Under the pieces are notes generated by a model. The model saw only the letters and a program-made list of their open reading frames with translations, was not told the origin of the DNA and ran no database searches. From NCBI RefSeq assembly GCF_054482595.1, contig NZ_CM137008.1: a DNA stretch of 64,000 nucleotides; one strand, written 5' to 3'. A program made the translations under genes and the position numbers. Positions 1,666 through 51,876 of the stretch are shown here, piece after piece; within the stretch, counting starts at the first letter, position 1, and the number at the start of each line of letters is the position of its first letter.

Positions 1666-3612
1666 ATGAAAACAAATATAAAAGTATTTACATCGACAGG
1701 TGAATTGACCACTCTTGGCCGTGAACTGGGCAAAGGTGGTGAAGGCGCGGTTTATGATATCGAGGAGTTTGTCGATAGCGTCGCCAAGATTTATCACACG
1801 CCGCCACCCGCCTTAAAACAGGACAAACTTGCCTTTATGGCTGCGACAGCTGACGCGCAGTTGTTGAATTATGTCGCCTGGCCGCAGGCAACGCTTCACG
1901 GTGGACGAGGCGGAAAAGTTATCGGTTTTATGATGCCAAAAGTTTCTGGTAAAGAACCGATTCATATGATCTATAGCCCGGCACATCGTCGCCAGAGTTA
2001 CCCTCATTGTGCGTGGGATTTTCTACTCTATGTTGCGCGCAATATTGCTTCATCTTTTGCTACGGTTCACGAGCACGGGCACGTCGTGGGTGACGTAAAC
2101 CAGAACAGTTTTATGGTAGGTCGCGACAGCAAAGTGGTACTGATTGATAGCGACTCCTTTCAGATTAACGCCAATGGCACACTGCATTTATGCGAAGTCG
2201 GCGTGTCGCATTTTACGCCGCCAGAGCTACAAACCTTGTCGTCATTTGTCGGCTTTGAACGCACAGAAAATCACGATAATTTTGGCCTTGCGTTGCTGAT
2301 TTTTCACGTCTTGTTTGGTGGCCGGCATCCTTATTCTGGTGTGCCGCTTATCTCTGATGCGGGTAATGCGCTGGAGACGGATATTACCCATTTCCGTTAT
2401 GCCTACGCGTCAGATAATCAGCGACGTGGTTTAAAACCGCCGCCACGATCGATTCCGCTATCGATGTTACCGAGTGATGTTGAAGCCATGTTTCAGCAGG
2501 CATTCACGGAAAGTGGCGTGGCAACCGGGCGTCCGACGGCTAAAGCGTGGGTAGCGGCACTTGATTCTCTGCGCCAACAGTTAAAGAAATGTCCCGTTTC
2601 GGCAATGCATGTTTATCCCGCTCATTTGACCGACTGCCCGTGGTGTGCGCTGGATAATCAAGGCGTTATCTATTTTATTGATCTCGGCGAAGAGGTCATT
2701 ACCACCAGCGGTGATTTTGTGCTGGCGAAAGTCTGGGCGATGGTGATGGCGTCAGTAGCACCGCCAGCATTGCAATTGCCATTACCCGATCATTTCCAAC
2801 CGACTGGCAGGCCGCTTCCTTTAGGCCTGTTACGGCGCGAATACATCATTCTGATTGAGATCGCACTGTCAGCGTTATCGCTGTTGCTTTGCGGCCTTCA
2901 GGCAGAACCGCGTTATATTATTTTGGTTCCTGTGCTGTCGGCTATCTGGATTATTGGCAGTCTGACAAGCAAAGCGTACAAAGCAGAAGTTCAGCAACGC
3001 CGTGAGGCATTTAATCGCGCGAAAATGGACTATGACCATTTAGTCAGCCAGATCCAACAGTTGGGCGGGCTGGAAGGTTTTATCGCCAAACGGACGATGC
3101 TCGAAAAAATGAAGGACGAAATGCTCGGGTTACCGGAAGAAGAAAAACGTGCTCTGGCAGCACTTCACGACACCGCAAGGGAACGGCAGAAGCAGAAGTT
3201 TCTGGAGGGATTTTTTATTGATGTTGCCTCTATTCCCGGCGTTGGCCCTGCGCGTAAAGCGGCGTTACGGTCCTTTGGTATTGAAACAGCAGCGGATGTT
3301 ACCCGTCGTGGGGTTAAGCAAGTGAAAGGGTTTGGTGATCATCTGACCCAGGCAGTTATCGACTGGAAAGCAAGTTGCGAACGCCGTTTTGTGTTCAGGC
3401 CGAATGAAGCGGTAACGCCAGCAGACAGACAAGCGGTAATGGCGAAAATGACCGCCAAACGACATCGGCTGGAATCGACGTTGACTGTCGGCGCGACAGA
3501 GTTGCAGCGATTCCGCCTTCATGCTCCAGCACGGACCATGCCGTTGATGGAACCGTTACGTCAGGCGGCAGAAAAACTGACTCAGGCGCAGGCTGATTTA
3601 AGCCGCTGCTGA
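1666..3612 (+). CDS. yegI: Ser/Thr protein kinase-like protein with two predicted TM helices and C-terminal helix-hairpin-helix
   Basis: 648-aa ORF; kinase-like N-terminal region (GKGGEGAVY glycine loop, HGHVVGDVN catalytic-loop-like); hydrophobic segments ~2836-2970; HhH-like IPGVGPARKAALRSFGIETAADV. Confidence 0.9.
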   Translation: MKTNIKVFTSTGELTTLGRELGKGGEGAVYDIEEFVDSVAKIYHTPPPALKQDKLAFMAATADAQLLNYVAWPQATLHGGRGGKVIGFMMPKVSGKEPIHMIYSPAHRRQSYPHCAWDFLLYVARNIASSFATVHEHGHVVGDVNQNSFMVGRDSKVVLIDSDSFQINANGTLHLCEVGVSHFTPPELQTLSSFVGFERTENHDNFGLALLIFHVLFGGRHPYSGVPLISDAGNALETDITHFRYAYASDNQRRGLKPPPRSIPLSMLPSDVEAMFQQAFTESGVATGRPTAKAWVAALDSLRQQLKKCPVSAMHVYPAHLTDCPWCALDNQGVIYFIDLGEEVITTSGDFVLAKVWAMVMASVAPPALQLPLPDHFQPTGRPLPLGLLRREYIILIEIALSALSLLLCGLQAEPRYIILVPVLSAIWIIGSLTSKAYKAEVQQRREAFNRAKMDYDHLVSQIQQLGGLEGFIAKRTMLEKMKDEMLGLPEEEKRALAALHDTARERQKQKFLEGFFIDVASIPGVGPARKAALRSFGIETAADVTRRGVKQVKGFGDHLTQAVIDWKASCERRFVFRPNEAVTPADRQAVMAKMTAKRHRLESTLTVGATELQRFRLHAPARTMPLMEPLRQAAEKLTQAQADLSRC

Positions 3613-6066: not shown

Positions 6067-9000
6067 TCAGTTAATCGCGAAATAACTACTATTCACCAGC
6101 AAATCCAGCGGTTGGGCATCGGCAATCACATCACCATAAATCAGATCGACGCCGATGCCAGAAAGCGTATCCATCACTAAGGGTAAAACGACTGGCCCGG
6201 CGATGGTTTTCATCCCGAGTCGCTGAGCGTGCCCCTGAATAATCGTAATCAGCATCTCATCCATCAAATTACCCTGCACGTTGGCGCATAACTCACCATC
6301 AAGTAGCAGGTAATCTGCCATATTCGCTTTCAGCGAGTTGAAGATTTGCAGATCGCGGCCCACCTGGCTGAGTATTATCCGACATCCCGCCAGCCGCAGT
6401 TTTTGCACGCTTTCTGCGTGATCTAAAATCGCTTCAGCCGGAATAATCAGATGTAATAACCGTGGTGGTAGAGGGCTATTTTCCAGCTGCTCAAGCAGAT
6501 CATTCACCAGCGTGGCGCTACTCAAACCGGCAACGGAAAGGGGGAGGGCGATGCTTATGCCTTTACTGGCAACCGCTTTTGCGGCCTGCTGGAAAAATTC
6601 GTGGAATACCCGGCGGTCAAAAGCATGGCTAAGCGCCGGATCGCTGAAGCTACGACGAAATGTTTGTTCATCAATAATCTCGCCTTCGCAACTCCAGAGC
6701 TTAAGTGAAATCAGCCACAAATTACGCGCTTCCGGGATCCGTGGCGAAGCGACACCGTGGGCCATCATCATCAACTGATTCTCTTTAATCATCCGCCACT
6801 GTTCATCAAGCGACATCGCCGCCCGTTCGCTATGTGCGGCAGCTTGCTGCGGTTCGTAAACCGTCACCCGGCCCCGGCCACCATTTTTGGAGGCATAACA
6901 GGCGATATCAGCCTGCGACATCACTTCTGCCGCCTGATGATTGTTGTCATCGATCAAGGTAATCCCGGCGCTGGCACCTACCCGATGTACACGTCCTTCC
7001 CAGATAAAGTGATAGTCATTCACAGCACTGATAATACGTGTAGCGATAAAACGCGCACTTTCGACATTGCAGTCTGGCAGCAGCAGACCAAATTCATCAC
7101 CGCCGAGCCGCGCCAGCACGTCGCTGGAGCGCAGCATGCTCAGCATCAACGACGCCAGTTCGCGCAGCAAAGCGTCGCCAGCGGCATGCCCGGCGCTGTC
7201 ATTCACCGCTTTAAAGCGATCAAGATCGATAAACACCAGTGCATGTCGCTGATGCGTACTGTTTACCGTTTGCAGCAGGATACGCAGTTGTTTCTCAAAA
7301 CTGGCGCGGTTGGCGAGATGCGTCAGTGCATCATGGGAGGCGCTGTAGCTCAGCTGGCGCAGCATTTTGCGTGATTCGGTAACGTCCTGAATCACCAGAA
7401 CCGAACCAATATTGCTGCCGTCCAGAGTACTTAACGGCGTAATACTGTAATGCACGTCGTAACTGCCGCCGCTCCGACAGTGCAACACCACATCTTGTTC
7501 GATCGCGGAACGTGAGGTGTCGGCACTGTAAATGTTCTCCATTAATGGTCCGTTGTCGCCAAAAGTAATATGCAACACCGTCAGGAGCGGAACACCTAAC
7601 GCTTCTTCCTGCGTCCAGCCGCTCATCTTCTCCGCCACTGGATTCATAAAGGTAATTTTCATCGCCATATCAATACAGACCACGGCTTCGCCGATGGAGT
7701 CCAGCGTAATGTGCAGGCGCTCTTTTTCCTGAAACAATGCCTCGTTAAGCTGTTTAACCTCGGTCATATCCATATTAATGCCGAGCAGGCGTTCGACTTC
7801 GCCTTCTTTATTCAGTACCCGGTTGGCGAGGGCGCGGATATGGCGGATGCCATCTTTCACGGCAATGCGAAATTCCAGCTTAAAGGGCGAGCGTGATTGC
7901 AACGAATCACGAATCACTTTTTCGGCATGCTGGCGATCTTCCGGCAGCACGCACTCGTACCACACCTGCCAGTTCGGTTTGATATGCGGAGGAATTTCAT
8001 ACAGCTCGAACATCCGCTTATCCCAGCTAAAAATATTCGGCTTCAACTCCCACTCCCAGATGCCAATCCCGCCCGCTTCGTTAGCCAGCGTGATGCGTTC
8101 CATCAGTTGCTGATTCACCTGTTCGGTGCGTTTTAGCTCGTTAATGTCTTCAATCTGAGCGATAAAATAGAGCGGCGTGCCATCCGTGTGGCGCACCAGT
8201 GAGACGGCAAGCAACGCCCAGACAACATCGCCATTACGGTTGTAGTAGCGTTTTTCCATTGAATAGGTGTTTATTTCACCGCTTATCAGCTTTTCAACCT
8301 GTTGGAGATCTTTATTGAGATCCTCCGGCCAGGTCAGTTGCTGAAAGGTGAGTCCGCGCAGCTCTTCCTGACTGTAACCGAGAAACTGGCAGAGTGCTTT
8401 GTTGGATTGCAGCCATTGTCCCTCGGTGCCCACTAATGCCATGCCGATGGCGGAATATTCCATGGCGTTCCGAAAGCGGGTTTCGCTTTCGGAAATGTGT
8501 TTGCGTTCCGCACGAAAGGCATACATCACCATGGTCATGATGTTGGCGGGCAGCAGGATCAGCAAAAACGGTAGCCACGGCATATGGGTCATCAGGTACG
8601 TACGCGGCGTAGCAAGCAGGGAGGGATCCGCGGCCATCATCAGCGACACCATCATCACCGTGGTAAGGAAGATCAAAAAGGCTTCCATTCGTGGCAGGCG
8701 CACGGCGCTCCACATCAACAGCACAATAATGAAAGTAAAAGGCCACGGCAGATACAGCATCGAAAGCCAGCTTAACGTCAGTGTGATGGCTAACGTAAGC
8801 AGCGACTCAAAAAGCAATCGTGGGTTGCGATGGCGCAGCAGATAGTGTGGTTTAAATAACAATCCCAGCGGCACCAGTGCCAGAGCGCCGATGGATTCTG
8901 ACAGTACCCATATCAAAAATGCCCTGAGAGGATCGTCTCCGGGCGTCAGCAGGACAACCAGAACACCCCCCAACAGAGGCGGAACAATGGCGCTGCCGAG

Positions 9001-9384
9001 TGCCAGACGCAGCCAGTCAGCCAGATTTTGCAAGGGGTTATACCACGGCAGCAATTTACGTAGCAGCACTGCCCCGACCACGGCTTCAACAATATTGATG
9101 GTCGTCCAGGTCATGTTCAGCGAGCTGGTGGAAAAAAGCAGGATGGATGCGGCGATATTTCCCAGCGAACAGCTCAGCGCAATTCCCGGCCACATGCGCC
9201 CGGCATGGCGATAAAACGCCACCATCATGATGGACGTCGGGAACCACAGTGGGGCGAGTTGGGTGCCAAACTGCGAAAGCTCAAGCGAGAAAAGGGTGAA
9301 GATAAACGAGACTAAACCTAAACTGACCAGGTGAAGCAGCGGGTGGGGCAGGGCAATTAATACATGCTGTGATTGTTTGCTCAT
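6067..9384 (-). CDS. dgcE: Diguanylate cyclase DgcE (MASE1-PAS-GGDEF with EAL-like C-terminus)
   Basis: 1105-aa ORF; multi-TM N-terminus, PAS regions, RLGGDEFGLLL GGDEF motif; K-12 yegE length. Confidence 0.9.
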   Translation of the reverse strand: MSKQSQHVLIALPHPLLHLVSLGLVSFIFTLFSLELSQFGTQLAPLWFPTSIMMVAFYRHAGRMWPGIALSCSLGNIAASILLFSTSSLNMTWTTINIVEAVVGAVLLRKLLPWYNPLQNLADWLRLALGSAIVPPLLGGVLVVLLTPGDDPLRAFLIWVLSESIGALALVPLGLLFKPHYLLRHRNPRLLFESLLTLAITLTLSWLSMLYLPWPFTFIIVLLMWSAVRLPRMEAFLIFLTTVMMVSLMMAADPSLLATPRTYLMTHMPWLPFLLILLPANIMTMVMYAFRAERKHISESETRFRNAMEYSAIGMALVGTEGQWLQSNKALCQFLGYSQEELRGLTFQQLTWPEDLNKDLQQVEKLISGEINTYSMEKRYYNRNGDVVWALLAVSLVRHTDGTPLYFIAQIEDINELKRTEQVNQQLMERITLANEAGGIGIWEWELKPNIFSWDKRMFELYEIPPHIKPNWQVWYECVLPEDRQHAEKVIRDSLQSRSPFKLEFRIAVKDGIRHIRALANRVLNKEGEVERLLGINMDMTEVKQLNEALFQEKERLHITLDSIGEAVVCIDMAMKITFMNPVAEKMSGWTQEEALGVPLLTVLHITFGDNGPLMENIYSADTSRSAIEQDVVLHCRSGGSYDVHYSITPLSTLDGSNIGSVLVIQDVTESRKMLRQLSYSASHDALTHLANRASFEKQLRILLQTVNSTHQRHALVFIDLDRFKAVNDSAGHAAGDALLRELASLMLSMLRSSDVLARLGGDEFGLLLPDCNVESARFIATRIISAVNDYHFIWEGRVHRVGASAGITLIDDNNHQAAEVMSQADIACYASKNGGRGRVTVYEPQQAAAHSERAAMSLDEQWRMIKENQLMMMAHGVASPRIPEARNLWLISLKLWSCEGEIIDEQTFRRSFSDPALSHAFDRRVFHEFFQQAAKAVASKGISIALPLSVAGLSSATLVNDLLEQLENSPLPPRLLHLIIPAEAILDHAESVQKLRLAGCRIILSQVGRDLQIFNSLKANMADYLLLDGELCANVQGNLMDEMLITIIQGHAQRLGMKTIAGPVVLPLVMDTLSGIGVDLIYGDVIADAQPLDLLVNSSYFAIN

Positions 9385-9701
9385 TACCGCTTTATCCGCA
9401 AGACCTGGTCGCCAGTATTCGTTTCTGTGTTTATGCTAGTACAAAAGTTTTACATTTTATATGCGAATTGCTCATAAAGTGACGTAAAGGCGGATAATTT
9501 GCGCAACTGCGTATAACATTTTTTACCTTACATAAAACTGATCAATGTAATTTGCCACCGGGAATTCTTCGTCAACAATTAACTCTGAGCGCGCGGCAAC
9601 GCTATTCGACTGGTATCAGGCGGATGAAATCCCTATAATTGCCGCGTTTGGCGCTTCGTCGCCCCCTTCCTAACATCCAGGTTAATCAGGTCGCTAAATA
9701 T

Positions 9702-10343
9702 ATGACTGATCAGTCTCATCAGTGCGTCATTATCGGTATCGCTGGCGCATCGGCTTCCGGCAAGAGTCTTATTGCCAGTACCCTTTATCGTGAATTACGT
9801 GAGCAAGTCGGTGATGAACACATCGGCGTAATTCCCGAAGACTGCTATTACAAAGATCAAAGCCATCTGTCGATGGAAGAACGCGTTAAGACCAACTACG
9901 ACCATCCCAGCGCGATGGATCACAGCCTGCTGCTTGAGCATTTACAAGCGTTGAAACGCGGCTCGGCAATTGACCTGCCGGTTTACAGCTATGTTGAACA
10001 TACGCGTATGAAAGAAACGGTGACGGTTGAGCCGAAGAAGGTCATCATTCTCGAAGGCATTTTGTTGCTGACGGATGCGCGTTTGCGTGACGAACTTAAC
10101 TTCTCCATTTTCGTTGATACCCCGCTGGATATCTGCCTGATGCGCCGCATCAAGCGTGACGTTAACGAGCGTGGGCGTTCAATGGATTCAGTGATGGCGC
10201 AATATCAAAAAACCGTGCGCCCGATGTTCCTGCAATTCATTGAGCCTTCTAAACAATATGCGGACATTATCGTGCCGCGCGGCGGGAAAAACCGCATCGC
10301 GATCGATATATTGAAAGCGAAAATAAGTCAGTTCTTTGAATAA
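9702..10343 (+). CDS. udk: Uridine/cytidine kinase
   Basis: 213 aa from ATG at 9702 ([23 protein letters not shown]-loop); the track ORF start at 9639 is an upstream extension. Confidence 0.95.
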
Positions 10344-10434
10344 GCTTGATAAATTGTGTACCGTTCAGTGATAACCTGGTATGCCCTTGACGTAATTGGC
10401 GTTAAGGGAGTGATGCGCGAAAGGAGAAAATGCC

Positions 10435-11016
10435 ATGCGTCTGTGTGACCGAGATATTGAAGCCTGGCTTGATGAAGGCCGTTTGTCGATCAACCCACGT
10501 CCGCCAGTGGAGCGTATTAACGGCGCGACGGTGGATGTACGCCTGGGCAATAAATTTCGTACCTTCCGTGGTCACACGGCAGCGTTTATCGATCTGAGCG
10601 GTCCCAAAGATGAAGTGAGCGCCGCGCTTGACCGCGTGATGAGCGATGAGATCGTTCTCGACGAGGGCGAGGCGTTCTATCTTCACCCAGGAGAGCTGGC
10701 GCTGGCGGTGACGCTGGAGTCGGTGACGCTGCCAGCCGATCTGGTGGGCTGGCTGGACGGGCGTTCCTCACTGGCGCGTCTGGGGCTGATGGTGCACGTC
10801 ACCGCGCACCGTATCGATCCGGGCTGGTCTGGTTGCATTGTGCTGGAGTTCTACAACTCCGGTAAGCTGCCGCTGGCGCTGCGTCCGGGCATGTTAATTG
10901 GTGCGCTGAGCTTTGAGCCGCTTTCCGGCCCGGCGGCGCGACCTTACAACCGCCGTGAAGATGCGAAATATCGCAACCAGCAGGGCGCGGTAGCCAGCCG
11001 AATCGATAAAGACTAA
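10435..11016 (+). CDS. dcd: dCTP deaminase
   Basis: 193-aa ORF matching Dcd. Confidence 0.95.
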
Positions 11017-11037
11017 TTCAGGCCCATTGAGGATACC

Positions 11038-12891
11038 ATGAGACGATTTCTGACGACGCTGATGATACTCCTGGTCGTGCTGGTGGCCGGGTTATCTGCG
11101 TTAGTGTTGCTGGTGAATCCGAATGATTTCCGCGACTATATGGTCAAGCAAGTTGCTGCACGTAGCGGTTATCAATTGCAGCTCGACGGGCCACTGCGTT
11201 GGCACGTCTGGCCGCAGCTTAGTATCCTCTCCGGGCGAATGTCTCTCACCGCCCAGGGCGCAAGCCAGCCACTGGTTCGCGCCGACAACATGCGTCTGGA
11301 CGTGGCGCTTTTACCACTACTGAGTCATCAACTGAGCGTTAAGCAGGTGATGCTAAAAGGGGCAGTGATCCAACTGACGCCGCAGACGGAAGCGGTGCGC
11401 AGTGAAGACGCTCCGGTTGCACCGCGCGACAATACCTTGCCGGATCTGTCAGACGATCGCGGATGGTCGTTTGATATATCCAGTCTTAAGGTGGCGGACA
11501 GCGTGCTGGTGTTCCAGCATGAAGATGACGAGCAGGTGACAATCCGCAATATTCGCCTGCAAATGGAACAAGATCCCCAACATCGTGGTTCATTTGAGTT
11601 CTCCGGGCGGGTTAATCGCGATCAGCGCGATCTCACGATATCCCTTAACGGTACGGTAGATGCTTCTGATTATCCGCATGATTTAACGGCGGCTATTGAA
11701 CAAATTAACTGGCAGTTGCAGGGTGCCGATTTACCAAAACAAGGTATTCAGGGGCAGGGGAGTTTCCAGGCCCAGTGGCAGGAGTCACATAAACGCCTTT
11801 CATTTAACCAAATTAGTTTGACCGCCAATGATAGTACGCTAAGCGGGCAAGCACAGGTTACGCTGACAGAGAAACCGGAATGGCAGCTGAGGCTGCAATT
11901 CCCGCAACTGAATCTTGACAACCTCATCCCGCTTAATGAAACCGCGAATGGTGAAAACGGTGCCGCGCAGCAGGGGCAGAGCCAATCAACGTTGCCGCGC
12001 CCGGTCATTTCTTCGCGTATTGATGAACCGGCCTATCAGGGACTGCAAGGCTTTACGGCTGATATTTTGTTGCAGGCCAGTAACGTGCGCTGGCGCGGAA
12101 TGAATTTTACAGATGTTGCCACGCAAATGACCAACAAGTCGGGTTTGCTGGAAATTACTCAACTGCAGGGCAAACTTAACGGTGGACAGGTTTCACTGCC
12201 GGGCACGCTGGACGCGACATCAATAAATCCGCGGATAAACTTCCAGCCACGGCTGGAAAACGTTGAGATTGGTACCATTCTGAAGGCGTTTAACTATCCG
12301 ATTTCGTTGACCGGAAAAATGTCACTGGCTGGTGATTTCTCCGGTGCTGACATAGATGCCGACGCATTCCGCCACAACTGGCAAGGACAGGCACATGTCG
12401 AAATGACCGACACGCGCATGGAAGGGATGAACTTCCAGCAGATGATTCAGCAAGCGGTAGAGCGTAATGGCGGTGATGTGAAGGCCGCTGAAAACTTTGA
12501 TAACGTGACGCGGCTTGACCGCTTTACCACCGATTTGACGTTGAAGGATGGCGTCGTGACGTTAAACGACATGCAAGGTCAATCGCCTGTGCTGGCGCTG
12601 ACAGGGGAAGGCATGTTGAATCTGGCAGATCAAACCTGCGACACCCAGTTTGATATTCGGGTCGTGGGTGGCTGGAACGGGGAAAGCAAACTGATTGATT
12701 TCCTGAAAGAAACGCCAGTACCGCTGCGGGTTTATGGCAACTGGCAGCAACTCAATTACAGCCTGCAAGTGGATCAGTTACTGCGCAAACATCTACAGGA
12801 CGAAGCGAAACGTCGCCTGAATGACTGGGCCGAGCGGAATAAAGATTCCCGTAATGGCAAAGATGTGAAGAAGTTGCTGGAGAAGATGTAG
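11038..12891 (+). CDS. asmA: Outer-membrane assembly protein AsmA
   Basis: 617-aa ORF with N-terminal membrane anchor; K-12 asmA follows dcd. Confidence 0.9.
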   Translation: MRRFLTTLMILLVVLVAGLSALVLLVNPNDFRDYMVKQVAARSGYQLQLDGPLRWHVWPQLSILSGRMSLTAQGASQPLVRADNMRLDVALLPLLSHQLSVKQVMLKGAVIQLTPQTEAVRSEDAPVAPRDNTLPDLSDDRGWSFDISSLKVADSVLVFQHEDDEQVTIRNIRLQMEQDPQHRGSFEFSGRVNRDQRDLTISLNGTVDASDYPHDLTAAIEQINWQLQGADLPKQGIQGQGSFQAQWQESHKRLSFNQISLTANDSTLSGQAQVTLTEKPEWQLRLQFPQLNLDNLIPLNETANGENGAAQQGQSQSTLPRPVISSRIDEPAYQGLQGFTADILLQASNVRWRGMNFTDVATQMTNKSGLLEITQLQGKLNGGQVSLPGTLDATSINPRINFQPRLENVEIGTILKAFNYPISLTGKMSLAGDFSGADIDADAFRHNWQGQAHVEMTDTRMEGMNFQQMIQQAVERNGGDVKAAENFDNVTRLDRFTTDLTLKDGVVTLNDMQGQSPVLALTGEGMLNLADQTCDTQFDIRVVGGWNGESKLIDFLKETPVPLRVYGNWQQLNYSLQVDQLLRKHLQDEAKRRLNDWAERNKDSRNGKDVKKLLEKM

Positions 12892-12911
12892 GTTACCAGG
12901 TGACCAGTCCT

Positions 12912-12948
12912 GTAGGCCTGATAAGACGCGTAAAGCGTCGCATCAGGC
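12912..12948. repeat. REP element downstream of asmA
   Basis: gtaggcctgataagacgcg...cgtcgcatcaggc. Confidence 0.7.
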
Positions 12949-13164
12949 GTTCGTGGCGGCATCATTATATTCTGAATATGTAAGATCGAAGGCTGTTCCG
13001 TTCACTTGATGTTCCTCGCTACTATGGAACGCTCAAGCCGGTGAACGTGCCAGGGTGGCTCAATCTCCACCACCCTGGCAACCCGGGCTCCCGGCGGTAA
13101 ATCGCCGATGGCGCGGTTCCCTCATCTTATTCCTTTCGGCTATTGGGTAAAATGACCGATACCA

Positions 13165-14748
13165 TCACACCTCGTACTCCATCTCGCCATCCTTACGCAG
13201 CGGTATAATCTGCACCTTCTGCACGCGATGGCTTTCTACCTGCAACGTTTTAAGCAAATAATCCCCCACCTGAACTTCTTCGCCAGGTTTTGGAATACGC
13301 TGCAAATACTCCATCAACAGCCCGGCAATGGTGTGATATTCACGTTTTTCATCCAGCGGCAGCGGCACATATTGCACCAGATCCTCCAGCGGCATATGAC
13401 CATTCGCCGTCCAGGAACCGTCCGCATTCTTCTGAATATCATGGCGGGCGTCGATCTCTTCCACTTCGTTCGGTAAGTTACCGGCAATGGTTTCAGTGAC
13501 GTCACTTAATGTCACAATCCCTTCCACCGAGCCAAACTCATCCACCACAAAAGCAAAGTGCGTGCGGGCATTACGGAACTGCTCCAGGGCAGGTAACAAC
13601 GGCAAGGTTTCCGGGAACACCAGCGGCTGGCGAATCAACACCCGCAGGTTGAGCGGTTCGCCGCGCAGAGACTGTTGTAGCAGGTCGATAACGTGAACAA
13701 CACCGAGCAAATCTTCTGCGTCATCACCGTCGGTAACCACCAGCCGCGTATGCTGATTTCGCTCCAGCAACTGGCGGATTTCTTCTTCCGGCGCGTTGAG
13801 ATCGATATGCTCAATATCGTGGCGCGACGTCATAATGCTGCTGACGGTACGCTGGTTAAGATTAAGTACCCGCTCAATCATCCGCCGTTCCTGCGGATTA
13901 AAGATCTGCTGGTTACCATGATCCACCAGCATGGACGCGGTTTCGGCGTCCAGTTCCGCATCTTCTTTTTGCCCGCTAAGCAGGCGCATTACCGCTTCGG
14001 TAGTCCGCTGGCGCAGCGTCTGGTTAGCGGAAAGAAAACGTCGCCGGTTAAAGATAGCCAACTGATTGAGCGCCTCGATCATCACCGAGAAACCAATGGC
14101 AGCGTACAGGTAGCCTTTCGGAATGACGAAGCCGAAACCTTCTGCCACCAGGCTAAAGCCAATCATCAACAGGAAGCTTAAGCAGAGAATAACGATGGTC
14201 GGGTGACTGTTAACAAATTGCGTTAACGGCTTGCTGGCCATCAACATCAGGCTGATAGCGATAACCACGGCGGCCATCATGACCAGTAAATGGTCGACCA
14301 TCCCGACGGCGGTAATCACTGAGTCGAGTGAGAAAATGGCGTCCAGTACCACAATTTGCGTCACCACGCCCCAGAACTTCGCACCTTTGCGTTGTGTGGG
14401 ATTATTGCTGTCTTTCCCTTCCAGCCGTTCGTTCAGCTCCATCGTGGCTTTGAACAACAGGAAGAAACCACCAAACAGCATGATTAAGTCGCGGGCGCTA
14501 AAGGTAAACGAGCGGAAGCTGAACAGCGGTTGAGTCAGGGTGACCAGCCAGGAGATTGACGCCAGCAGTAACAGGCGCATTAACATTGCCAGCAGCAGCC
14601 CGGTAACCCGTGCGCGGTCACGCTGCTTCGGCGGTAGTTTTTCGGCGAGGATGGCAATAAAGACCAGGTTATCAATGCCGAGGACCAGTTCGATCACAAT
14701 CAGCGTGATTAACCCGGCCCAGATAGACGGATCGGCAATCCATTCCAT
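13165..14748 (-). CDS. yegH: TerC-family membrane protein with CBS and CorC domains (YegH)
   Basis: 527 aa from ATG at 14748 ([10 protein letters not shown]); the track ORF extends to a TTG at 14814. Confidence 0.85.
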
Positions 14749-15190
14749 AGTAAGTACAAAACCTATTCGTTGTATGACAAATGTCACAATTCGATCATGG
14801 ATAAATCGGGGCAAAAATGCAATGTTGTAGCACTATTTATCTCATATTATTTGAGGGTAATAACCTCACATTATCCCTGAATTAAAAGTGGTAATAATAA
14901 AACATTATTTAAGAAATATCGCATGTGGAGACACTATATTAAATATTGTCAACCTAAAGAAACTCCTAAAAACCATATTGAATGACACTTAATATAATTC
15001 TTAAAAATAGCCAATTACCGAATTGTTATCTTGCCTGCTATTCCGTTAGCTGTAACACTTCCTCCTGCATTATTGGAAAGCCAATATTCAATTACCATAA
15101 TGTCACCTTATATTCGGAAGTTAATTTCCGTAATAACCCTTTCTCATCAACGACTGCATGCTGAGAGGGTGTGAAAAATTAAACTAAATC

Positions 15191-15229
15191 AGTGTATTGG
15201 TAGCTAAAAAGCCAGGGGCGGTAGCGTGT
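15191..15229 (+). promoter_or_regulatory. JUMPStart element with ops (RfaH recruitment) site in the wza leader
   Basis: cagtg...ggtagc...agccaggggcggtagcgtg; ops core GGCGGTAGCGTG at 15217-15228. Confidence 0.8.
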
Positions 15230-15406
15230 CTGGATGCCTGAAAGACCAGTCTGAATTATTCTGTCAATAGCCTGCGGATGAAATCAATTTTTTTAGGACT
15301 GATGCCAGTTAAATTTTTATTCAATTAACTGCAAGGTAAATGTGCATGGCGACATTGCTATTAATAGTGCACAGGATAATTACTCTGCCAAAGTGATAAA
15401 TAAACA

Positions 15407-16546
15407 ATGATGAAATCCAAAATGAAATTGATGCCATTATTGGTGTCAGTAACCTTGATAAGCGGTTGCACAGTACTTCCGGGCAGCAATATGTCGACGA
15501 TGGGCAAAGACGTCATCAAACAGCAGGACGCTGATTTCGATCTCGACAAAATGGTGAATGTTTATCCGCTGACCCCGCGCCTGATTGACCAATTACGCCC
15601 ACGCCCGAATGTAGCGCGCCCCAATATGACGCTGGAAAGTGAGATCGCGAATTACCAGTATCGCGTCGGGCCGGGGGACGTTCTTAATGTCACCGTCTGG
15701 GATCACCCGGAACTCACCACGCCAGCCGGTCAGTACCGCAGCTCCAGCGACACCGGCAACTGGGTACAGCCTGACGGCACTATGTTTTACCCGTATATCG
15801 GCAAGGTCCACGTAGTCGGGAAAACGCTCGCTGAAATCCGCAGTGATATTACCGGGCGCTTAGCGACGTACATCGCTGACCCGCAGGTGGACGTTAATAT
15901 CGCCGCCTTCCGCTCACAAAAGGCCTATATCTCCGGTCAGGTGAATAAATCCGGTCAACAGGCGATCACCAACGTGCCACTGACTATTCTCGACGCCATC
16001 AACGCCGCAGGTGGCCTGACCGACACCGCTGACTGGCGCAACGTGGTGCTAACACACAATGGTCGTGAAGAGCGCATTTCTTTGCAGGCGCTGATGCAAA
16101 ACGGCGACCTCAACCAGAATCGCCTGCTTTACCCCGGCGATATTCTCTACGTGCCACGTAATGATGATCTGAAAGTATTTGTGATGGGTGAAGTGAAGAA
16201 ACAGAGCACCCTGAAAATGGACTTTAGCGGCATGACCCTGACTGAAGCCCTGGGCAATGCTGAAGGCATCGACATGACCACCTCCAACGCCAGCGGCATC
16301 TTTGTCATTCGTCCGCTGAAAGGCGAGGGCGGGCGTAACGGCAAGATTGCCAATATCTACCAGCTGGATATGTCCGATGCCACGTCGCTGGTGATGGCGA
16401 CAGAATTCCGCCTGCAACCTTATGACGTGGTGTATGTCACCACCGCCCCGGTTTCCCGCTGGAACCGTCTGATCAATCAGTTGCTGCCAACTATTAGCGG
16501 TGTCCGTTACATGACGGATACAGCCAGCGACATTCATAACTGGTAA
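15407..16546 (+). CDS. wza: Colanic acid outer-membrane polysaccharide export lipoprotein
   Basis: 379-aa ORF, lipoprotein signal (LISGCT), matches Wza. Confidence 0.95.
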
Positions 16547-16551
16547 TCGTC

Positions 16552-16995
16552 ATGTTTAACAACATCTTAGTTGTCTGTGTCGGCAATATTTGCCGTTCCC
16601 CGACGGCGGAACGCTTACTGCAACGTTATCACCCGGAGCTGAAAGTGGAGTCCGCTGGACTCGGCGCGCTGGTCGGTAAGGGCGCTGATCCTACCGCTAT
16701 CAGCGTCGCCGCAGAACATCAACTGTCTCTGGAAGGTCACTGTGCCCGTCAAATCAGCCGCCGTCTGTGTCGCAACTACGACCTGATTTTGACCATGGAA
16801 AAGCGCCATATCGAACGCTTATGCGAGATGGCACCGGAGATGCGCGGCAAAGTGATGCTGTTTGGTCACTGGGATAACGAATGTGAAATCCCCGATCCGT
16901 ATCGCAAAAGCCGGGAAACGTTTGCAGCGGTGTACACATTACTTGAACGGTCTGCCCGCCAGTGGGCGCAGGCATTGAACGCAGAGCAGGTATAA
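16552..16995 (+). CDS. wzb: Low-molecular-weight protein-tyrosine phosphatase
   Basis: 147-aa ORF, CVGNICRSP active-site P-loop. Confidence 0.95.
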   Translation: MFNNILVVCVGNICRSPTAERLLQRYHPELKVESAGLGALVGKGADPTAISVAAEHQLSLEGHCARQISRRLCRNYDLILTMEKRHIERLCEMAPEMRGKVMLFGHWDNECEIPDPYRKSRETFAAVYTLLERSARQWAQALNAEQV

Positions 16996-16997
16996 GA

Positions 16998-19160
16998 ATG
17001 ACAGAAAAAGTAAAACAACATGCCGCTCCGGTAACGGGCAGTGATGAAATCGATATTGGTCGCCTGGTCGGCACCGTCATTGAAGCGCGCTGGTGGGTGA
17101 TTGGCATCACCACCGTATTCGCCCTCTGTGCCGTGGTTTACACCTTCTTCGCCACGCCGATTTATAGTGCCGACGCACTGGTACAAATCGAGCAAAACAG
17201 CGGCAATTCGTTAGTGCAGGACATTGGTTCGGCATTAGCCAACAAACCGCCTGCATCGGACGCCGAGATCCAGTTGATTCGTTCGCGTCTGGTGCTTGGT
17301 AAAACGGTGGACGATCTCGACCTCGATATTGCAGTGAGCAAAAACACGTTCCCGATTTTCGGTGCGGGCTGGGATCGCCTGATGGGACGTCAGAACGAGA
17401 CGGTGAAAGTGACCACCTTTAACCGCCCGAAAGAGATGGCGGATCAGGTGTTTACGCTTAATGTGCTGGACAACAAAAACTACACCCTGAGCAGCGACGG
17501 CGGCTTTAGCGCCCGGGGGCAAGCGGGCCAGATGCTGAAAAAAGAAGGCGTCACGCTGATGGTTGAAGCCATTCACGCCAGCCCGGGCAGTGAGTTTACC
17601 GTCACCAAATACTCCACGCTGGGGATGATCAACCAACTGCAAAACAGCCTGACGGTAACGGAGAACGGCAAAGACGCTGGCGTTTTGAGCCTGACTTATA
17701 CCGGTGAAGATCGTGAACAGATCCGCGACATTCTTAACAGCATCGCCCGTAACTATCAGGAACAAAATATTGAGCGCAAATCGGCGGAAGCGTCGAAAAG
17801 CCTCGCCTTCCTCGCGCAACAGTTACCGGAAGTACGTAGCCGCTTGGATGTTGCCGAAAACAAACTGAATGCCTTCCGTCAGGATAAAGATTCTGTTGAT
17901 CTGCCGCTGGAAGCGAAAGCGGTGCTCGATTCGATGGTGAACATCGACGCCCAGTTGAACGAACTGACCTTTAAAGAGGCGGAAATCTCCAAGCTGTACA
18001 CCAAAGTTCACCCGGCGTACCGCACGCTGCTGGAGAAACGTCAGGCGCTGGAAGACGAAAAAGCCAAACTTAACGGTCGCGTAACGGCGATGCCGAAAAC
18101 CCAGCAGGAGATTGTCCGTCTGACCCGCGATGTCGAGTCTGGTCAGCAGGTCTATATGCAACTGCTGAATAAAGAGCAGGAGCTGAAAATCACCGAAGCC
18201 AGCACCGTCGGCGATGTGCGCATTGTTGACCCGGCAATCACCCAGCCAGGTGTACTGAAACCGAAGAAAGGGCTGATTATCCTTGGGGCGATTATTCTTG
18301 GCCTGATGCTCTCTATCGTGGGTGTGCTGCTGCGCTCGTTGTTTAATCGCGGCATCGAAAGCCCGCAGGTGCTGGAAGAACACGGTATCAGCGTCTATGC
18401 CAGCATCCCGTTGTCGGAATGGCAGAAAGCGCGCGATAGCGTCAAAACCATCAAAGGGATTAAACGCTATAAACAGAGCCAGCTACTGGCGGTGGGGAAT
18501 CCAACCGATCTGGCGATTGAAGCCATCCGCAGTCTGCGTACCAGTCTGCACTTCGCGATGATGCAGGCGCAGAACAATGTGTTGATGATGACCGGGGTTA
18601 GCCCGTCAATCGGTAAAACCTTTGTCTGCGCCAACCTGGCGGCGGTGATCAGCCAGACCAATAAACGCGTGTTGTTGATCGACTGCGATATGCGCAAAGG
18701 CTACACCCACGAGCTGTTGGGCACCAATAACGTCAATGGCCTGTCGGAAATTCTGATTGGTCAGGGCGATATTACTACCGCAGCTAAACCGACCTCTATT
18801 GCCAAATTTGACCTGATCCCGCGCGGTCAGGTGCCGCCAAATCCTTCTGAACTGTTGATGAGCGAACGCTTTGCCGAACTGGTGAACTGGGCGAGTAAAA
18901 ACTATGACCTGGTGTTGATTGATACGCCGCCGATTCTGGCAGTGACCGATGCGGCAATTGTTGGTCGTCATGTCGGAACCACATTAATGGTGGCGCGTTA
19001 TGCGGTCAACACATTGAAAGAAGTGGAAACCAGTCTGAGCCGCTTTGAGCAAAACGGTATTCCGGTGAAAGGGGTGATTCTGAACTCCATCTTCCGCCGC
19101 GCCAGCGCGTATCAGGATTATGGCTATTACGAATACGAATATAAGTCGGATGCGAAATAA
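16998..19160 (+). CDS. wzc: Tyrosine autokinase / polysaccharide co-polymerase (BY-kinase)
   Basis: 720 aa from ATG at 16998; Walker A GVSPSIGKT; C-terminal tyrosine cluster YQDYGYYEYEYKSDAK. Confidence 0.95.
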   Translation: MTEKVKQHAAPVTGSDEIDIGRLVGTVIEARWWVIGITTVFALCAVVYTFFATPIYSADALVQIEQNSGNSLVQDIGSALANKPPASDAEIQLIRSRLVLGKTVDDLDLDIAVSKNTFPIFGAGWDRLMGRQNETVKVTTFNRPKEMADQVFTLNVLDNKNYTLSSDGGFSARGQAGQMLKKEGVTLMVEAIHASPGSEFTVTKYSTLGMINQLQNSLTVTENGKDAGVLSLTYTGEDREQIRDILNSIARNYQEQNIERKSAEASKSLAFLAQQLPEVRSRLDVAENKLNAFRQDKDSVDLPLEAKAVLDSMVNIDAQLNELTFKEAEISKLYTKVHPAYRTLLEKRQALEDEKAKLNGRVTAMPKTQQEIVRLTRDVESGQQVYMQLLNKEQELKITEASTVGDVRIVDPAITQPGVLKPKKGLIILGAIILGLMLSIVGVLLRSLFNRGIESPQVLEEHGISVYASIPLSEWQKARDSVKTIKGIKRYKQSQLLAVGNPTDLAIEAIRSLRTSLHFAMMQAQNNVLMMTGVSPSIGKTFVCANLAAVISQTNKRVLLIDCDMRKGYTHELLGTNNVNGLSEILIGQGDITTAAKPTSIAKFDLIPRGQVPPNPSELLMSERFAELVNWASKNYDLVLIDTPPILAVTDAAIVGRHVGTTLMVARYAVNTLKEVETSLSRFEQNGIPVKGVILNSIFRRASAYQDYGYYEYEYKSDAK

Positions 19161-19169
19161 CGACATCCG

Positions 19170-19280
19170 CTGTCGGATGCGATGCTGACGCATCTTATCC
19201 GACCTACCTTCACGCCGCATCCGGCAAGCAAACCAGCTCCGTAGGCCGGATAAGGCGCTCACGCCGCATCCGGCAACAGA
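19170..19280. repeat. REP/BIME cluster between wzc and wcaA
   Basis: Several REP-like palindromes (gatgcgacgc / cttatccg / gccggatgcggcgtg types). Confidence 0.65.
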
Positions 19281-19337
19281 ACCCGTAAACAAGCTTATAA
19301 ACCGGCAGAACATCTCGATACTCCGGGAGAACAACCT

Positions 19338-47217: not shown

Positions 47218-48624
47218 ATGTCAAAGCAACAGATTGGCGTCGTCGGTATGGCAGTGATGGGGCGCAACCTTGCGCTCAACATCGAAAGCCGTGGTTATAC
47301 CGTCTCTATTTTCAACCGTTCCCGTGAAAAGACGGAAGAAGTGATTGCCGAAAATCCAGGCAAAAAACTGGTTCCTTACTATACGGTGAAAGAGTTTGTT
47401 GAATCTCTGGAAACGCCTCGTCGCATCCTGTTAATGGTGAAAGCAGGTGCAGGCACGGATGCTGCTATTGATTCCCTCAAGCCATACCTCGATAAAGGTG
47501 ACATCATCATTGATGGTGGTAATACTTTCTTCCAGGACACCATTCGTCGTAACCGTGAACTTTCTGCCGAAGGCTTTAACTTCATTGGTACCGGTGTTTC
47601 CGGTGGTGAAGAAGGCGCGCTGAAAGGGCCTTCCATTATGCCTGGTGGCCAGAAAGAAGCCTATGAACTGGTTGCACCGATCCTCACCAAAATCGCCGCA
47701 GTGGCTGAAGACGGTGAGCCATGCGTTACCTATATTGGTGCCGATGGAGCAGGTCACTATGTGAAGATGGTTCACAACGGTATTGAATACGGCGATATGC
47801 AGCTGATTGCTGAAGCCTATTCTCTGCTTAAAGGTGGCCTGAATCTTTCCAACGAAGAACTGGCGCAGACGTTTACCGAGTGGAATAACGGTGAACTGAG
47901 CAGCTACCTGATCGACATCACCAAAGATATCTTCACCAAAAAAGATGAAGACGGTAACTACCTGGTTGATGTGATTCTGGATGAAGCAGCAAACAAAGGT
48001 ACGGGCAAATGGACCAGCCAGAGTGCGCTGGATCTCGGCGAACCGTTGTCGCTGATTACCGAGTCTGTGTTTGCTCGTTATATCTCTTCTCTGAAAGATC
48101 AGCGTGTTGCCGCATCTAAAGTTCTCTCTGGCCCGCAAGCACAGCCAGCAGGCGACAAGGCTGAGTTCATCGAAAAAGTTCGTCGTGCGCTGTATCTGGG
48201 CAAAATCGTTTCTTACGCCCAGGGCTTCTCTCAGCTGCGTGCTGCGTCTGAAGAGTACAACTGGGATCTGAACTACGGCGAAATCGCGAAGATTTTCCGT
48301 GCTGGTTGCATCATCCGTGCGCAGTTCCTGCAGAAAATCACCGATGCATACGCCGAAAATCCGCAGATCGCTAACCTGCTGCTGGCTCCGTACTTCAAGC
48401 AAATTGCCGATGACTACCAGCAGGCGCTGCGCGATGTCGTCGCTTATGCGGTACAGAACGGTATCCCGGTTCCGACCTTCGCCGCTGCGGTTGCCTATTA
48501 TGACAGCTACCGCGCCGCAGTTCTGCCTGCGAACCTGATCCAGGCACAGCGTGACTATTTCGGTGCGCATACTTATAAGCGCATTGATAAAGAAGGTGTG
48601 TTCCATACCGAATGGTTGGATTAA
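47218..48624 (+). CDS. gnd: 6-phosphogluconate dehydrogenase (decarboxylating)
   Basis: 468-aa [22 protein letters not shown]-binding motif. Confidence 0.95.
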
Positions 48625-48650
48625 TCTGATCTAACCAACAATAAATTTAG

Positions 48651-48678
48651 GCCCGGCGTATATTGCGCCGGGCTTTTT
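48651..48678 (+). terminator. GC-rich hairpin plus T-run after gnd (gnd terminator or IS200 left-end terminator)
   Basis: gcccggcg / cgccgggc stem with 7-nt loop, then TTTTT. Confidence 0.6.
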
Positions 48679-48821
48679 GTGCACAGAAAACCCCCAGCTA
48701 GGCTGGGGGTTCCGGAAAGCTATCAGCTTTGAGCCAGTTATTAAAACCCCTTTTGATTTGTTAAAACACCTTGCGGTCTGGCAACTGCAAGTGTCAAACA
48801 AGAAATCAAAAGGGGGTCCCA

Positions 48822-49280
48822 ATGGGGAACGAAAAGAGCTTAGCGCACACCCGATGGAACTGTAAATATCACATAGTTTTTGCGCCAAAATACTGAAGAC
48901 AAGTGTTCTACAGAGAGAAACGTAGAGCAATAGGCAGTATTTTGAGAAAGCTGTGTGAGTGGAAAAGCGTACGGATTCTTGAAACTGAATGCTGTGCAGA
49001 TCATATCCATATGCTTGTGGAGAGCCCGCCCAAAATGAGCGTATCCGGCTTTATGGGATATCTGAAAGGGAAAAGCAGTCTGATGCTTTACGAGCAGTTT
49101 GATGATTTGAAATTCAAATACAGGAACAGGGAGTTCTGGTGCAGAGGGTACTACGTCGATACGGTGGGTAAGAACACGGCGAAGATACAGGATTACATAA
49201 AGCACCAGCTTGAAGAGGATAAAATGGGAGAGCAGTTATCGATTCCCTATCCGGGCAGCCCGTTTACGGGCCGTAAGTAA
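48822..49280 (+). pseudogene. tnpA: IS200 tnpA (Y1 HuH transposase) interrupted by an in-frame TGA at codon 25
   Basis: MGNEKSLAHTRWNCKYHIVFAPKY, TGA at 48894-48896, then the same frame continues through HIHMLVE (HuH motif) to the stop at 49280. Confidence 0.75.
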
Positions 49281-49361
49281 CGAAGTTGGATGCAAATGTC
49301 AGATCGTGTGCGCCTGTTAGGGCGCGGCTGGTAAGAGAGCCTTATAGGCGCATTTGAAAAA

Positions 49362-49392
49362 CCTCCGGCTATGCCGGAGGATATTTATTTTT
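49362..49392 (+). terminator. Hairpin plus T-run at the IS200-like right end
   Basis: cctccggc / gccggagg stem with 3-nt loop, followed by atatttattttt. Confidence 0.55.
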
Positions 49393-49573
49393 GCCAATTA
49401 TCTTATAGACTAAATTTCACTGCTTAATATTAACTTAATAAATATCAGCTATTCTTATAAAGAAAATCTGAATTGTTTTTCGTTGCGTTGACCATCTGAC
49501 AACGTAGCGTTAAAACTTTTAGCTCTTATCAGGATGCTAAAAACATCATGATTCACAGTTAAGTTAATTCTGA

Positions 49574-50749
<1,176 letters not shown>

Positions 50750-50895: not shown

Positions 50896-51876
50896 ATGAG
50901 AGTAGAAAATAATAATGTTTCTGGGCAAAACCATGACCAGGAACAGATTGATTTGATTGATTTACTGGTGCAGTTGTGGCGTGGCAAGATGACAATTATC
51001 ATCTCTGTCATTGTTGCTATTGCCCTGGCTATTGGGTATTTGGCGGTAGCGAAGGAGAAATGGACGTCAACAGCAATTATCACTCAGCCTGACGTGGGGC
51101 AAATTGCTGGCTATAACAATGCCATGAATGTTATCTATGGTCAGGCTGCACCTAAAGTGCCGGATTTACAGGAGGCGTTAATTGGTCGCTTCAGTTCTGC
51201 CTTCTCTGCATTAGCAGAAACGCTGGATAATCAGAAAGAACCAGAAAAACTTACCATCGAACCTTCTGTAAAGAACCAGCAATTACCATTGACTGTTTCT
51301 TATGTTGGGCAAACTGCAGAGGACGCACAAATGAAATTGGCCCAATACATTCAGCAAGTTGATGATAAAGTAAATCAAGAGCTAGAAAAGGATCTCAAGG
51401 ACAACCTTGCTTTGGGACGGAAAAACTTGCAGGACTCTTTAAGAACTCAGGAAGTGGTTGCGCAGGAGCAGAAAGATCTGCGTATCCGTCAGATTCAGGA
51501 AGCGTTGCAGTATGCGAATCAGGCGCAGGTGACAAAACCGCAGATTCAACAGACTGGCGAAGATATCACACAAGATACGTTGTTCCTTTTGGGGAGCGAA
51601 GCGCTGGAGTCGATGATTAAGCATGAGGCAACTCGTCCGTTGGTGTTTTCGCCAGACTACTATCAGACTCGTCAAAACCTGCTGGATATCGAAAACTTAA
51701 AGGTTGACGATCTTGATATTCATGCTTACCGTTATGTGATGAAACCGACGTTACCTATTCGTCGCGATAGCCCGAAAAAGGCAATTACCTTGATTCTGGC
51801 GGTGCTGCTGGGCGGCATGGTTGGCGCGGGGATTGTGTTGGGGCGTAATGCTCTGCGTAATTACAACTCGAAGTAA
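50896..51876 (+). CDS. wzzB: O-antigen chain-length determinant (polysaccharide co-polymerase 1)
   Basis: 326 aa from ATG at 50896 (MRVENNNVSG); two TM segments flanking a periplasmic coiled-coil region. Confidence 0.9.
   Translation: MRVENNNVSGQNHDQEQIDLIDLLVQLWRGKMTIIISVIVAIALAIGYLAVAKEKWTSTAIITQPDVGQIAGYNNAMNVIYGQAAPKVPDLQEALIGRFSSAFSALAETLDNQKEPEKLTIEPSVKNQQLPLTVSYVGQTAEDAQMKLAQYIQQVDDKVNQELEKDLKDNLALGRKNLQDSLRTQEVVAQEQKDLRIRQIQEALQYANQAQVTKPQIQQTGEDITQDTLFLLGSEALESMIKHEATRPLVFSPDYYQTRQNLLDIENLKVDDLDIHAYRYVMKPTLPIRRDSPKKAITLILAVLLGGMVGAGIVLGRNALRNYNSK

Follow-up and report, generated by a model that had tools for sequence, protein, structure and literature searches.

A defective IS200 element in the gnd terminator of Escherichia coli, probably a passenger of the O160 antigen block

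The spacer between gnd and ugd in the window (the whole 64,000-nt stretch of DNA analysed, from contig NZ_CM137008.1 of assembly GCF_054482595.1) carries an IS200 element of the IS200C type (about 48679-49388, + strand, 710 bp), the transposase gene of which is interrupted by an in-frame TGA. It is very probable that an IS200C copy inserted into the T-tract of the gnd terminator, that in the lineage of the O160 block a C-to-T transition later turned Arg25 (CGA) into a stop, that three further missense changes followed once selection on TnpA was gone, and that the element would since have spread only passively, with a galF-O160-gnd-ugd block of about 12 kb exchanged by homologous recombination between E. 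coli chromosomes. The insertion is an ordinary IS200 with a defective tnpA, the kind and state of which are already known and publicly annotated (RefSeq/PGAP labels identical copies 'tnpA', pseudogene, internal stop), and as a routine IS pseudogene it is in itself of little import. The features of the region, in window coordinates, are:

47218-48624, + strand: gnd (6-phosphogluconate dehydrogenase), an ORF of 468 aa annotated gndA in matching genomes; upstream of the IS and in the same orientation
48650-48678, + strand: native intrinsic terminator of gnd (GC hairpin and T5), predicted fold -21.8 kcal/mol, z = -4.9; target site of the insertion, outside the IS
48679-49388, + strand: IS200 (IS200C-type), from the empty-site alignment; its ends are common to copies at nine E. 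coli loci and fit the published 707-bp map (PMC4513863)
48689-48711, + strand: left-end perfect palindrome (IS200 nt 12-34), 10+10 nt, 100% complementary, -18.7 kcal/mol
48689-48812, + strand: Rfam RF01405 STnc490 (IS200 5'UTR / art200 region), 144.4 bits against a gathering score of 56, E 5.9e-31
about 48746-48815, + strand: 5'UTR stem-loop over the Shine-Dalgarno AAGGGGGT, a 16-nt inverted repeat, 94% complementary; role as in PMC4513863
48822-49280, + strand: tnpA pseudogene (Y1 HuH transposase, 152 codons), from the ORF, profile matches and the PGAP 'internal stop' on identical copies
48886-48944, + strand: inverted repeat CAAAATACTG / CAGTATTTTG, RNA fold -19.8 kcal/mol, z = -3.9
48894-48896, + strand: in-frame TGA at codon 25 (CGA in intact copies), from alignment with intact IS200C
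49362-49388, + strand: right-end hairpin CCTCCGGCTATGCCGGAGG and T-rich tail, terminator-like in both orientations
49583-50749, + strand: ugd, an ORF; downstream neighbour of the IS

The ends of the element were placed by comparison with the empty sites of K-12 and strain H6, which read GGCCCGGCG...CCGGGC, then T8, then GCCAA; the occupied site in the window has the same hairpin followed by T5, the element (GTGCACAGAAAACCCCC...CCGGAGGATATTTAT) and then TTTTGCCAA. Because the insertion lies within a T-run that varies in length between genomes, the end positions are uncertain by about 2 nt; the run is T8 in empty sites and T5-7 to the left and T2-4 to the right of the element in occupied ones, and this homopolymer variation masks any duplication of 0-2 nt. 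The first-pass annotation had correctly placed an element here, but the span that it gave (48646-49395) takes in 33 nt of the gnd terminator. Likewise, terminator-like hairpins were added at the left (48689-48711) and right (49362-49388) ends as it had claimed, but the one at 48650-48678 belongs to gnd and is also found, followed by T8, in the empty K-12 and H6 sites. The approximately 190 nt upstream of ugd match the empty-site genomes with a 2-nt difference at 49497-49498 as the sole change, and the promoter region of ugd itself has presumably been left untouched. The gnd-ugd spacer measures either about 250 or about 960 bp, a polymorphism relevant to PCR or typing schemes that cross it.

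Profile matches to Pfam Y1_Tnp (E 1.3e-36), NCBIfam NF033573 transpos_IS200 (147.5 bits against a cut-off of 55) and STnc490 lie far beyond chance and confirm that the element is IS200-like, as first annotated. The reconstructed TnpA, with codon 25 entered as X or R in the protein searches, matches the solved IS200-like/IS608 transposases 2EC2, 2F4F and 2A6M. With IS200C and IS200 of E. coli and Salmonella the copy shares its length of about 710 bp, the left-end palindrome at nt 12-34, the 5'UTR stem-loop over the Shine-Dalgarno, the right-end hairpin and a 152-codon Y1 HuH tnpA, and the published IS200 map shows the terminator at nt 12-34, the 5'UTR stem-loop at nt 69-138 and the catalytic residue Y125 (PMC4513863). 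The layout of the left palindrome, 5'UTR stem-loop and right hairpin is that of the IS200 group, with subterminal hairpins and not terminal inverted repeats. In Salmonella the left-end palindrome has been described as a bidirectional terminator that stops transcription from entering the element (PMC4513863). Our pattern scanner found only the right-end hairpin, overlooking the gnd terminator as well as the left-end palindrome, so folding and empty-site comparison were used. Rfam matches to Leu_leader, isrJ, PsrR1 and Ysr202 fell below their gathering scores, reflect terminator-like hairpins only and were rejected. The Ysr202 (Yersinia sRNA) match was partial (49357-49420, - strand, 34.8 bits against a gathering score of 315) and lies over the right-end hairpin, and it likely arises since the Yersinia model includes an IS1541 end.

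Read directly, the tnpA frame starts at ATG 48822, runs through MGNEKSLAHTRWNCKYHIVFAPKY to the TGA at 48894-48896 and, as the first-pass annotation had described, continues in the same frame as RQVFY...ADHIHMLVE...QDYIKHQ... to TAA 49278-49280, a total of 152 codons. The HuH motif (H61-I62-H63) is present at 49002-49010, and Y125, at 49194-49196, is the position of the Y125F catalytic mutant in PMC4513863. The transposase frame is nonetheless not uninterrupted, making this a defective member of the IS200 group. Codon 25 is CGA in all five other copies in our six-copy alignment at the gnd-ugd site (the window, EC2257, MMC-J-0020, OkiPb01685, YL03 and 510016), so that the stop results from a C-to-T change at 48894 and the nonsense change of CGA to TGA, not a frameshift, that the first-pass annotation had proposed proved right. 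The intact IS200C at the gnd-ugd site of EC2257 is 98.7% identical to the window copy (9 differences in 709 bp), but the latter has TGA in place of CGA and three private missense changes, the features of a non-autonomous pseudogene.

The frame does contain a single in-frame stop, but the view that this was the only damage is too simple, as the changes in the window copy relative to the six-copy consensus are R25stop, A55T, I68S and G94D together with three synonymous changes and one in the 5'UTR. The 510016 copy, which is intact and similarly diverged, has six synonymous changes and one missense. The direction of this contrast fits relaxed selection following inactivation, although the sites are few and the contrast is not statistically significant alone. 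Because three private missense changes accompany the stop, the gene looks like a decaying pseudogene and not a recoded one. Its product would be a peptide of at most 24 residues, incapable of supporting self-transposition; we infer this loss of TnpA activity, and the order of the events, from the sequence, the distribution of the allele and the pattern of substitutions, which were observed directly. The window copy differs by 1.3-2.1% from the other gnd-ugd copies and therefore looks older.

The distribution of the TGA allele was surveyed in a set of 5426 complete E. coli genomes that does not include the genome of the window. Fifteen independent complete assemblies, which come from different laboratories and hosts, match the 750-bp stretch of the window at 99.7-100% identity, and every one of them contains the exact 46-mer around the TGA, which makes a sequencing or assembly error, for which there is only the general possibility, an explanation that can practically be dismissed. 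The exact TGA 46-mer occurs in 16 of 20,395 records (1430 records match the 46-mer overall), of which 15 are the gnd-ugd copy and the sixteenth is a yicH-side copy in 2017.09.02CC. Since the yicH-side copy has the TGA without the other private changes of the window, it is read as an independent recurrence of the mutation. The R25 stop of this copy lies at about 3001-3046 of the stretch retrieved for 2017.09.02CC. The C-to-T change that makes the stop also turns a 9/10 inverted repeat (48886-48895 / 48935-48944) into a perfect 10-nt repeat, and its presence in the yicH-side copy could be due to quasipalindrome-templated mutation or plain coincidence.

The first-pass annotation had held the copy to be either inactive or dependent on readthrough; inactivity is what the sequence evidence supports, and readthrough is disfavoured by the decay of the gene and the lack of a recoding signal. 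Low-level readthrough of UGA occurs in E. coli, where stronger stop contexts than UGA followed by A exist, so that a UGA read through or recoded (e.g. as Trp) might give a little full-length TnpA, with the stop serving as an extra brake on transposition. The 127 codons that remain open past the stop, with HuH and Y125 intact, and the independent origin of the same C-to-T in the yicH-side copy would suit such a role, but the Arg that is replaced is conserved in the three solved Y1 transposases aligned (in the alignment with 2EC2, 2F4F and 2A6M, Arg25 falls on the first Arg of the KYRR/KHRR motif) and three more missense changes have accumulated. Furthermore, folding and an inverted-repeat search revealed no SECIS-like hairpin 3' of the UGA, which is itself paired within a stem, the stop occurs in none of the five other gnd-ugd copies, the exact TGA 46-mer is found in only 16 of the 1430 matching records, and descent of one O160 block can account for all carriers at gnd-ugd, rendering functional readthrough very improbable. 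A restart at GTG 48903 would open a 125-aa ORF only 7 nt past the stop and yield an N-truncated TnpA of 125 residues with a regulatory or dominant-negative role, but this GTG is not preceded by a Shine-Dalgarno-like sequence and the product would lose residues 1-27 and with them the conserved YHIVF...PKYRR segment, which can be aligned to the solved structures, and we consider it most unlikely that such a protein explains the allele.

Outside the coding sequence the element has changed very little. The left-end hairpin, the 5'UTR/STnc490 region and the right-end hairpin are conserved at the sequence level, with a single change among the 143 nt of the left end and none among the 108 nt of the right end; the STnc490 match spans the full model (positions 1-124 of 124), and 48717-48830 is predicted to fold at -39.4 kcal/mol (z = -4.1). 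Since the end hairpins and the 5'UTR/antisense region are intact, mobilisation in trans by another IS200 copy could persist and IS200 small RNAs may still be made. Other IS200 matches are absent in 11 of the 15 TGA-allele genomes, and there would therefore be no helper transposase in these. In Salmonella the 5'UTR RNA of IS200 regulates host genes (PMC5435999, PMC12594629), which suggests that the host might keep the copy for its RNAs (the 5'tnpA-derived sRNA and the antisense art200) or its terminators, the transposase being dispensable. The RNA and structural parts are nearly unchanged, at 1 change in 251 non-coding bases compared to 7 in the 459-nt CDS, and the STnc490 match is full length (144 bits), but at these counts the two substitution densities do not differ significantly, and the gnd-ugd site is empty in approximately 98% of complete E. 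coli genomes. Domestication of this kind is rather unlikely, though less so than readthrough or restart, and is compatible with decay and passive carriage, which it does not replace.

Between 38.5 and 50.9 kb the window (gne/galF, the O160 genes, gnd, IS200 and ugd; 12.4 kb) has no more than 3 differences from QA-1986 83, with which it is collinear, whereas the colanic-acid genes upstream and the wzzB-his region downstream differ by 3-5%. On the downstream side the breakpoint coincides with the beginning of wzzB (about 50.9-51.0 kb), and the bin at 51000-51499 contains 109 differences from QA-1986 83; the his region of the window is 99.6% identical to other E. coli. A near-identical block between diverged flanks indicates that the defective IS200 would be a passenger of an O160 block moved by homologous recombination, and the 12.4-kb pattern is, from the sequence comparison, what would be expected of a classic O-antigen block transfer. 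All nine TGA-allele genomes with surroundings examined (of 15) carry the O160 cluster wzx/wzy, and the TGA allele can serve as a clean marker for the recombining O160 block from galF to ugd.

The same O160 block is also found in EC71, beside an O9-type cluster; EC71 is 97-98% identical to the window and shows no similarity beyond about 52.0 kb. In this strain (8357-19337 of its retrieved stretch) the O9-type genes manC/manB/wzm/wzt/wbdA follow wzzB and the O160 Wzx/Wzy genes precede gnd, giving two O-antigen clusters at one locus; the O9-type genes are therefore a feature of EC71 that the window does not share.

IS200 as a whole is common in E. coli, with a match in 3099 of the 5426 complete genomes at up to 35 places per genome, and the gnd terminator joined to the IS200 left end was found in 107-114 of them (approximately 2%), in at least 6 O-antigen contexts and with copies that are intact, 7-bp-deleted (MMC-J-0020) or TGA-bearing. 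The insertion is thus not lineage-specific, a possibility that the first-pass annotation had left to a survey of this junction. Our literature search for IS200 between gnd and ugd gave nothing relevant. Between EC2257 and YL03 the divergence is 13.4% over 290 nt of flanking sequence and only 0.14% inside the element, and since the flanks are far more diverged than the IS, the best account, as far as the alignment can tell, is that at least one of the insertions into this terminator was independent, the alternative being gene conversion from other copies. A single ancient insertion behind every occupied gnd-ugd site was rejected as the sole account because of this same divergence.

Pseudogenised tnpA is common among other inactivated E. 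coli IS200 copies, as here, but each has a different lesion or locus. The 7-bp deletion of the MMC-J-0020 copy lies in the gnd-ugd element at about 2678-3129 of its retrieved stretch, and the IS200 copies of FDAARGOS_497 and 2016C-3878, which adjoin an MFS transporter gene, are labelled 'frameshifted; internal stop'.

The position of the element relative to the gnd terminator is shared with other members of the group, and this placement may be the only part of the analysis that merits a separate look. At 9/9 distinct E. coli IS200 loci (gnd, the yicH side, cof, uhpT, parE, lom, deoD, an MFS gene and the iraM side), five of which were chosen via flank similarity and the rest via an internal probe, the element lies directly after a GC-rich hairpin and T5-8, and the upstream gene is oriented as tnpA wherever it is annotated in the retrieved E. 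coli stretches. A wider scan with the left-end 19-mer, using one genome per species, gave 120 loci, including those in Yersinia pestis (IS1541), Vibrio, Brenneria, Edwardsiella, Oxalobacter, Mailhella, Desulfovibrio, Bacillota and Saccharibacteria assemblies. A hairpin ending no more than 6 nt from a T-run directly before the element was present in 93% of the 96 unique left flanks compared to 3% of 342 random controls, with mean folding energies of -18.9 and -7.2 kcal/mol, respectively (p about 3e-45). Placement of IS200-group elements directly after a terminator-like hairpin and T-run is well supported by these data.

The target rule of IS200 is regarded as poorly defined. As a tentative proposal, which we hold to be possible but less probable than not, IS200-group transposases may choose intrinsic terminators because a GC hairpin and T-run on single-stranded DNA mimics their own right end (hairpin and ATATTTATT), the copy then outliving its transposase as a small-RNA locus. 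Such a choice would account for the repeated hits on the gnd terminator, for tandem IS200/IS1541 copies and for elements that are transcriptionally insulated and harmless, and, if true, would help explain the harmless persistence of a nearly immobile element. In Yersinia pestis NCTC5923, IS1541/IS200 copies stand head to tail, the left flank of one being the right-end hairpin and ATATTTATT of another, and the right end itself therefore looks like a target. A 2025 preprint remarks at the family level that, among ISs, IS200/IS605 has the most pronounced terminator-like sequences upstream, and we found no paper stating a terminator rule for IS200 proper in a literature of which our coverage was partial. 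If not already described, terminator placement across very distant bacteria could interest transposon biologists. Group IIC introns show the same placement, inserting just after the stem-loops of intrinsic terminators (PMC7923331), but these are RNA-guided retroelements, whereas IS200 uses a Y1 single-strand DNA transposase.

The 19-nt left-end hairpin CCCCCAGCTAGGCTGGGGG was also found as an exact match in assemblies from distant phyla (Bacillota, Desulfovibrionaceae, Elusimicrobia, Saccharibacteria MAGs), often about 100 nt from contig ends; contamination of the MAGs is possible, and otherwise such identity across phyla suggests either wide recent transfer or extreme conservation of this hairpin.
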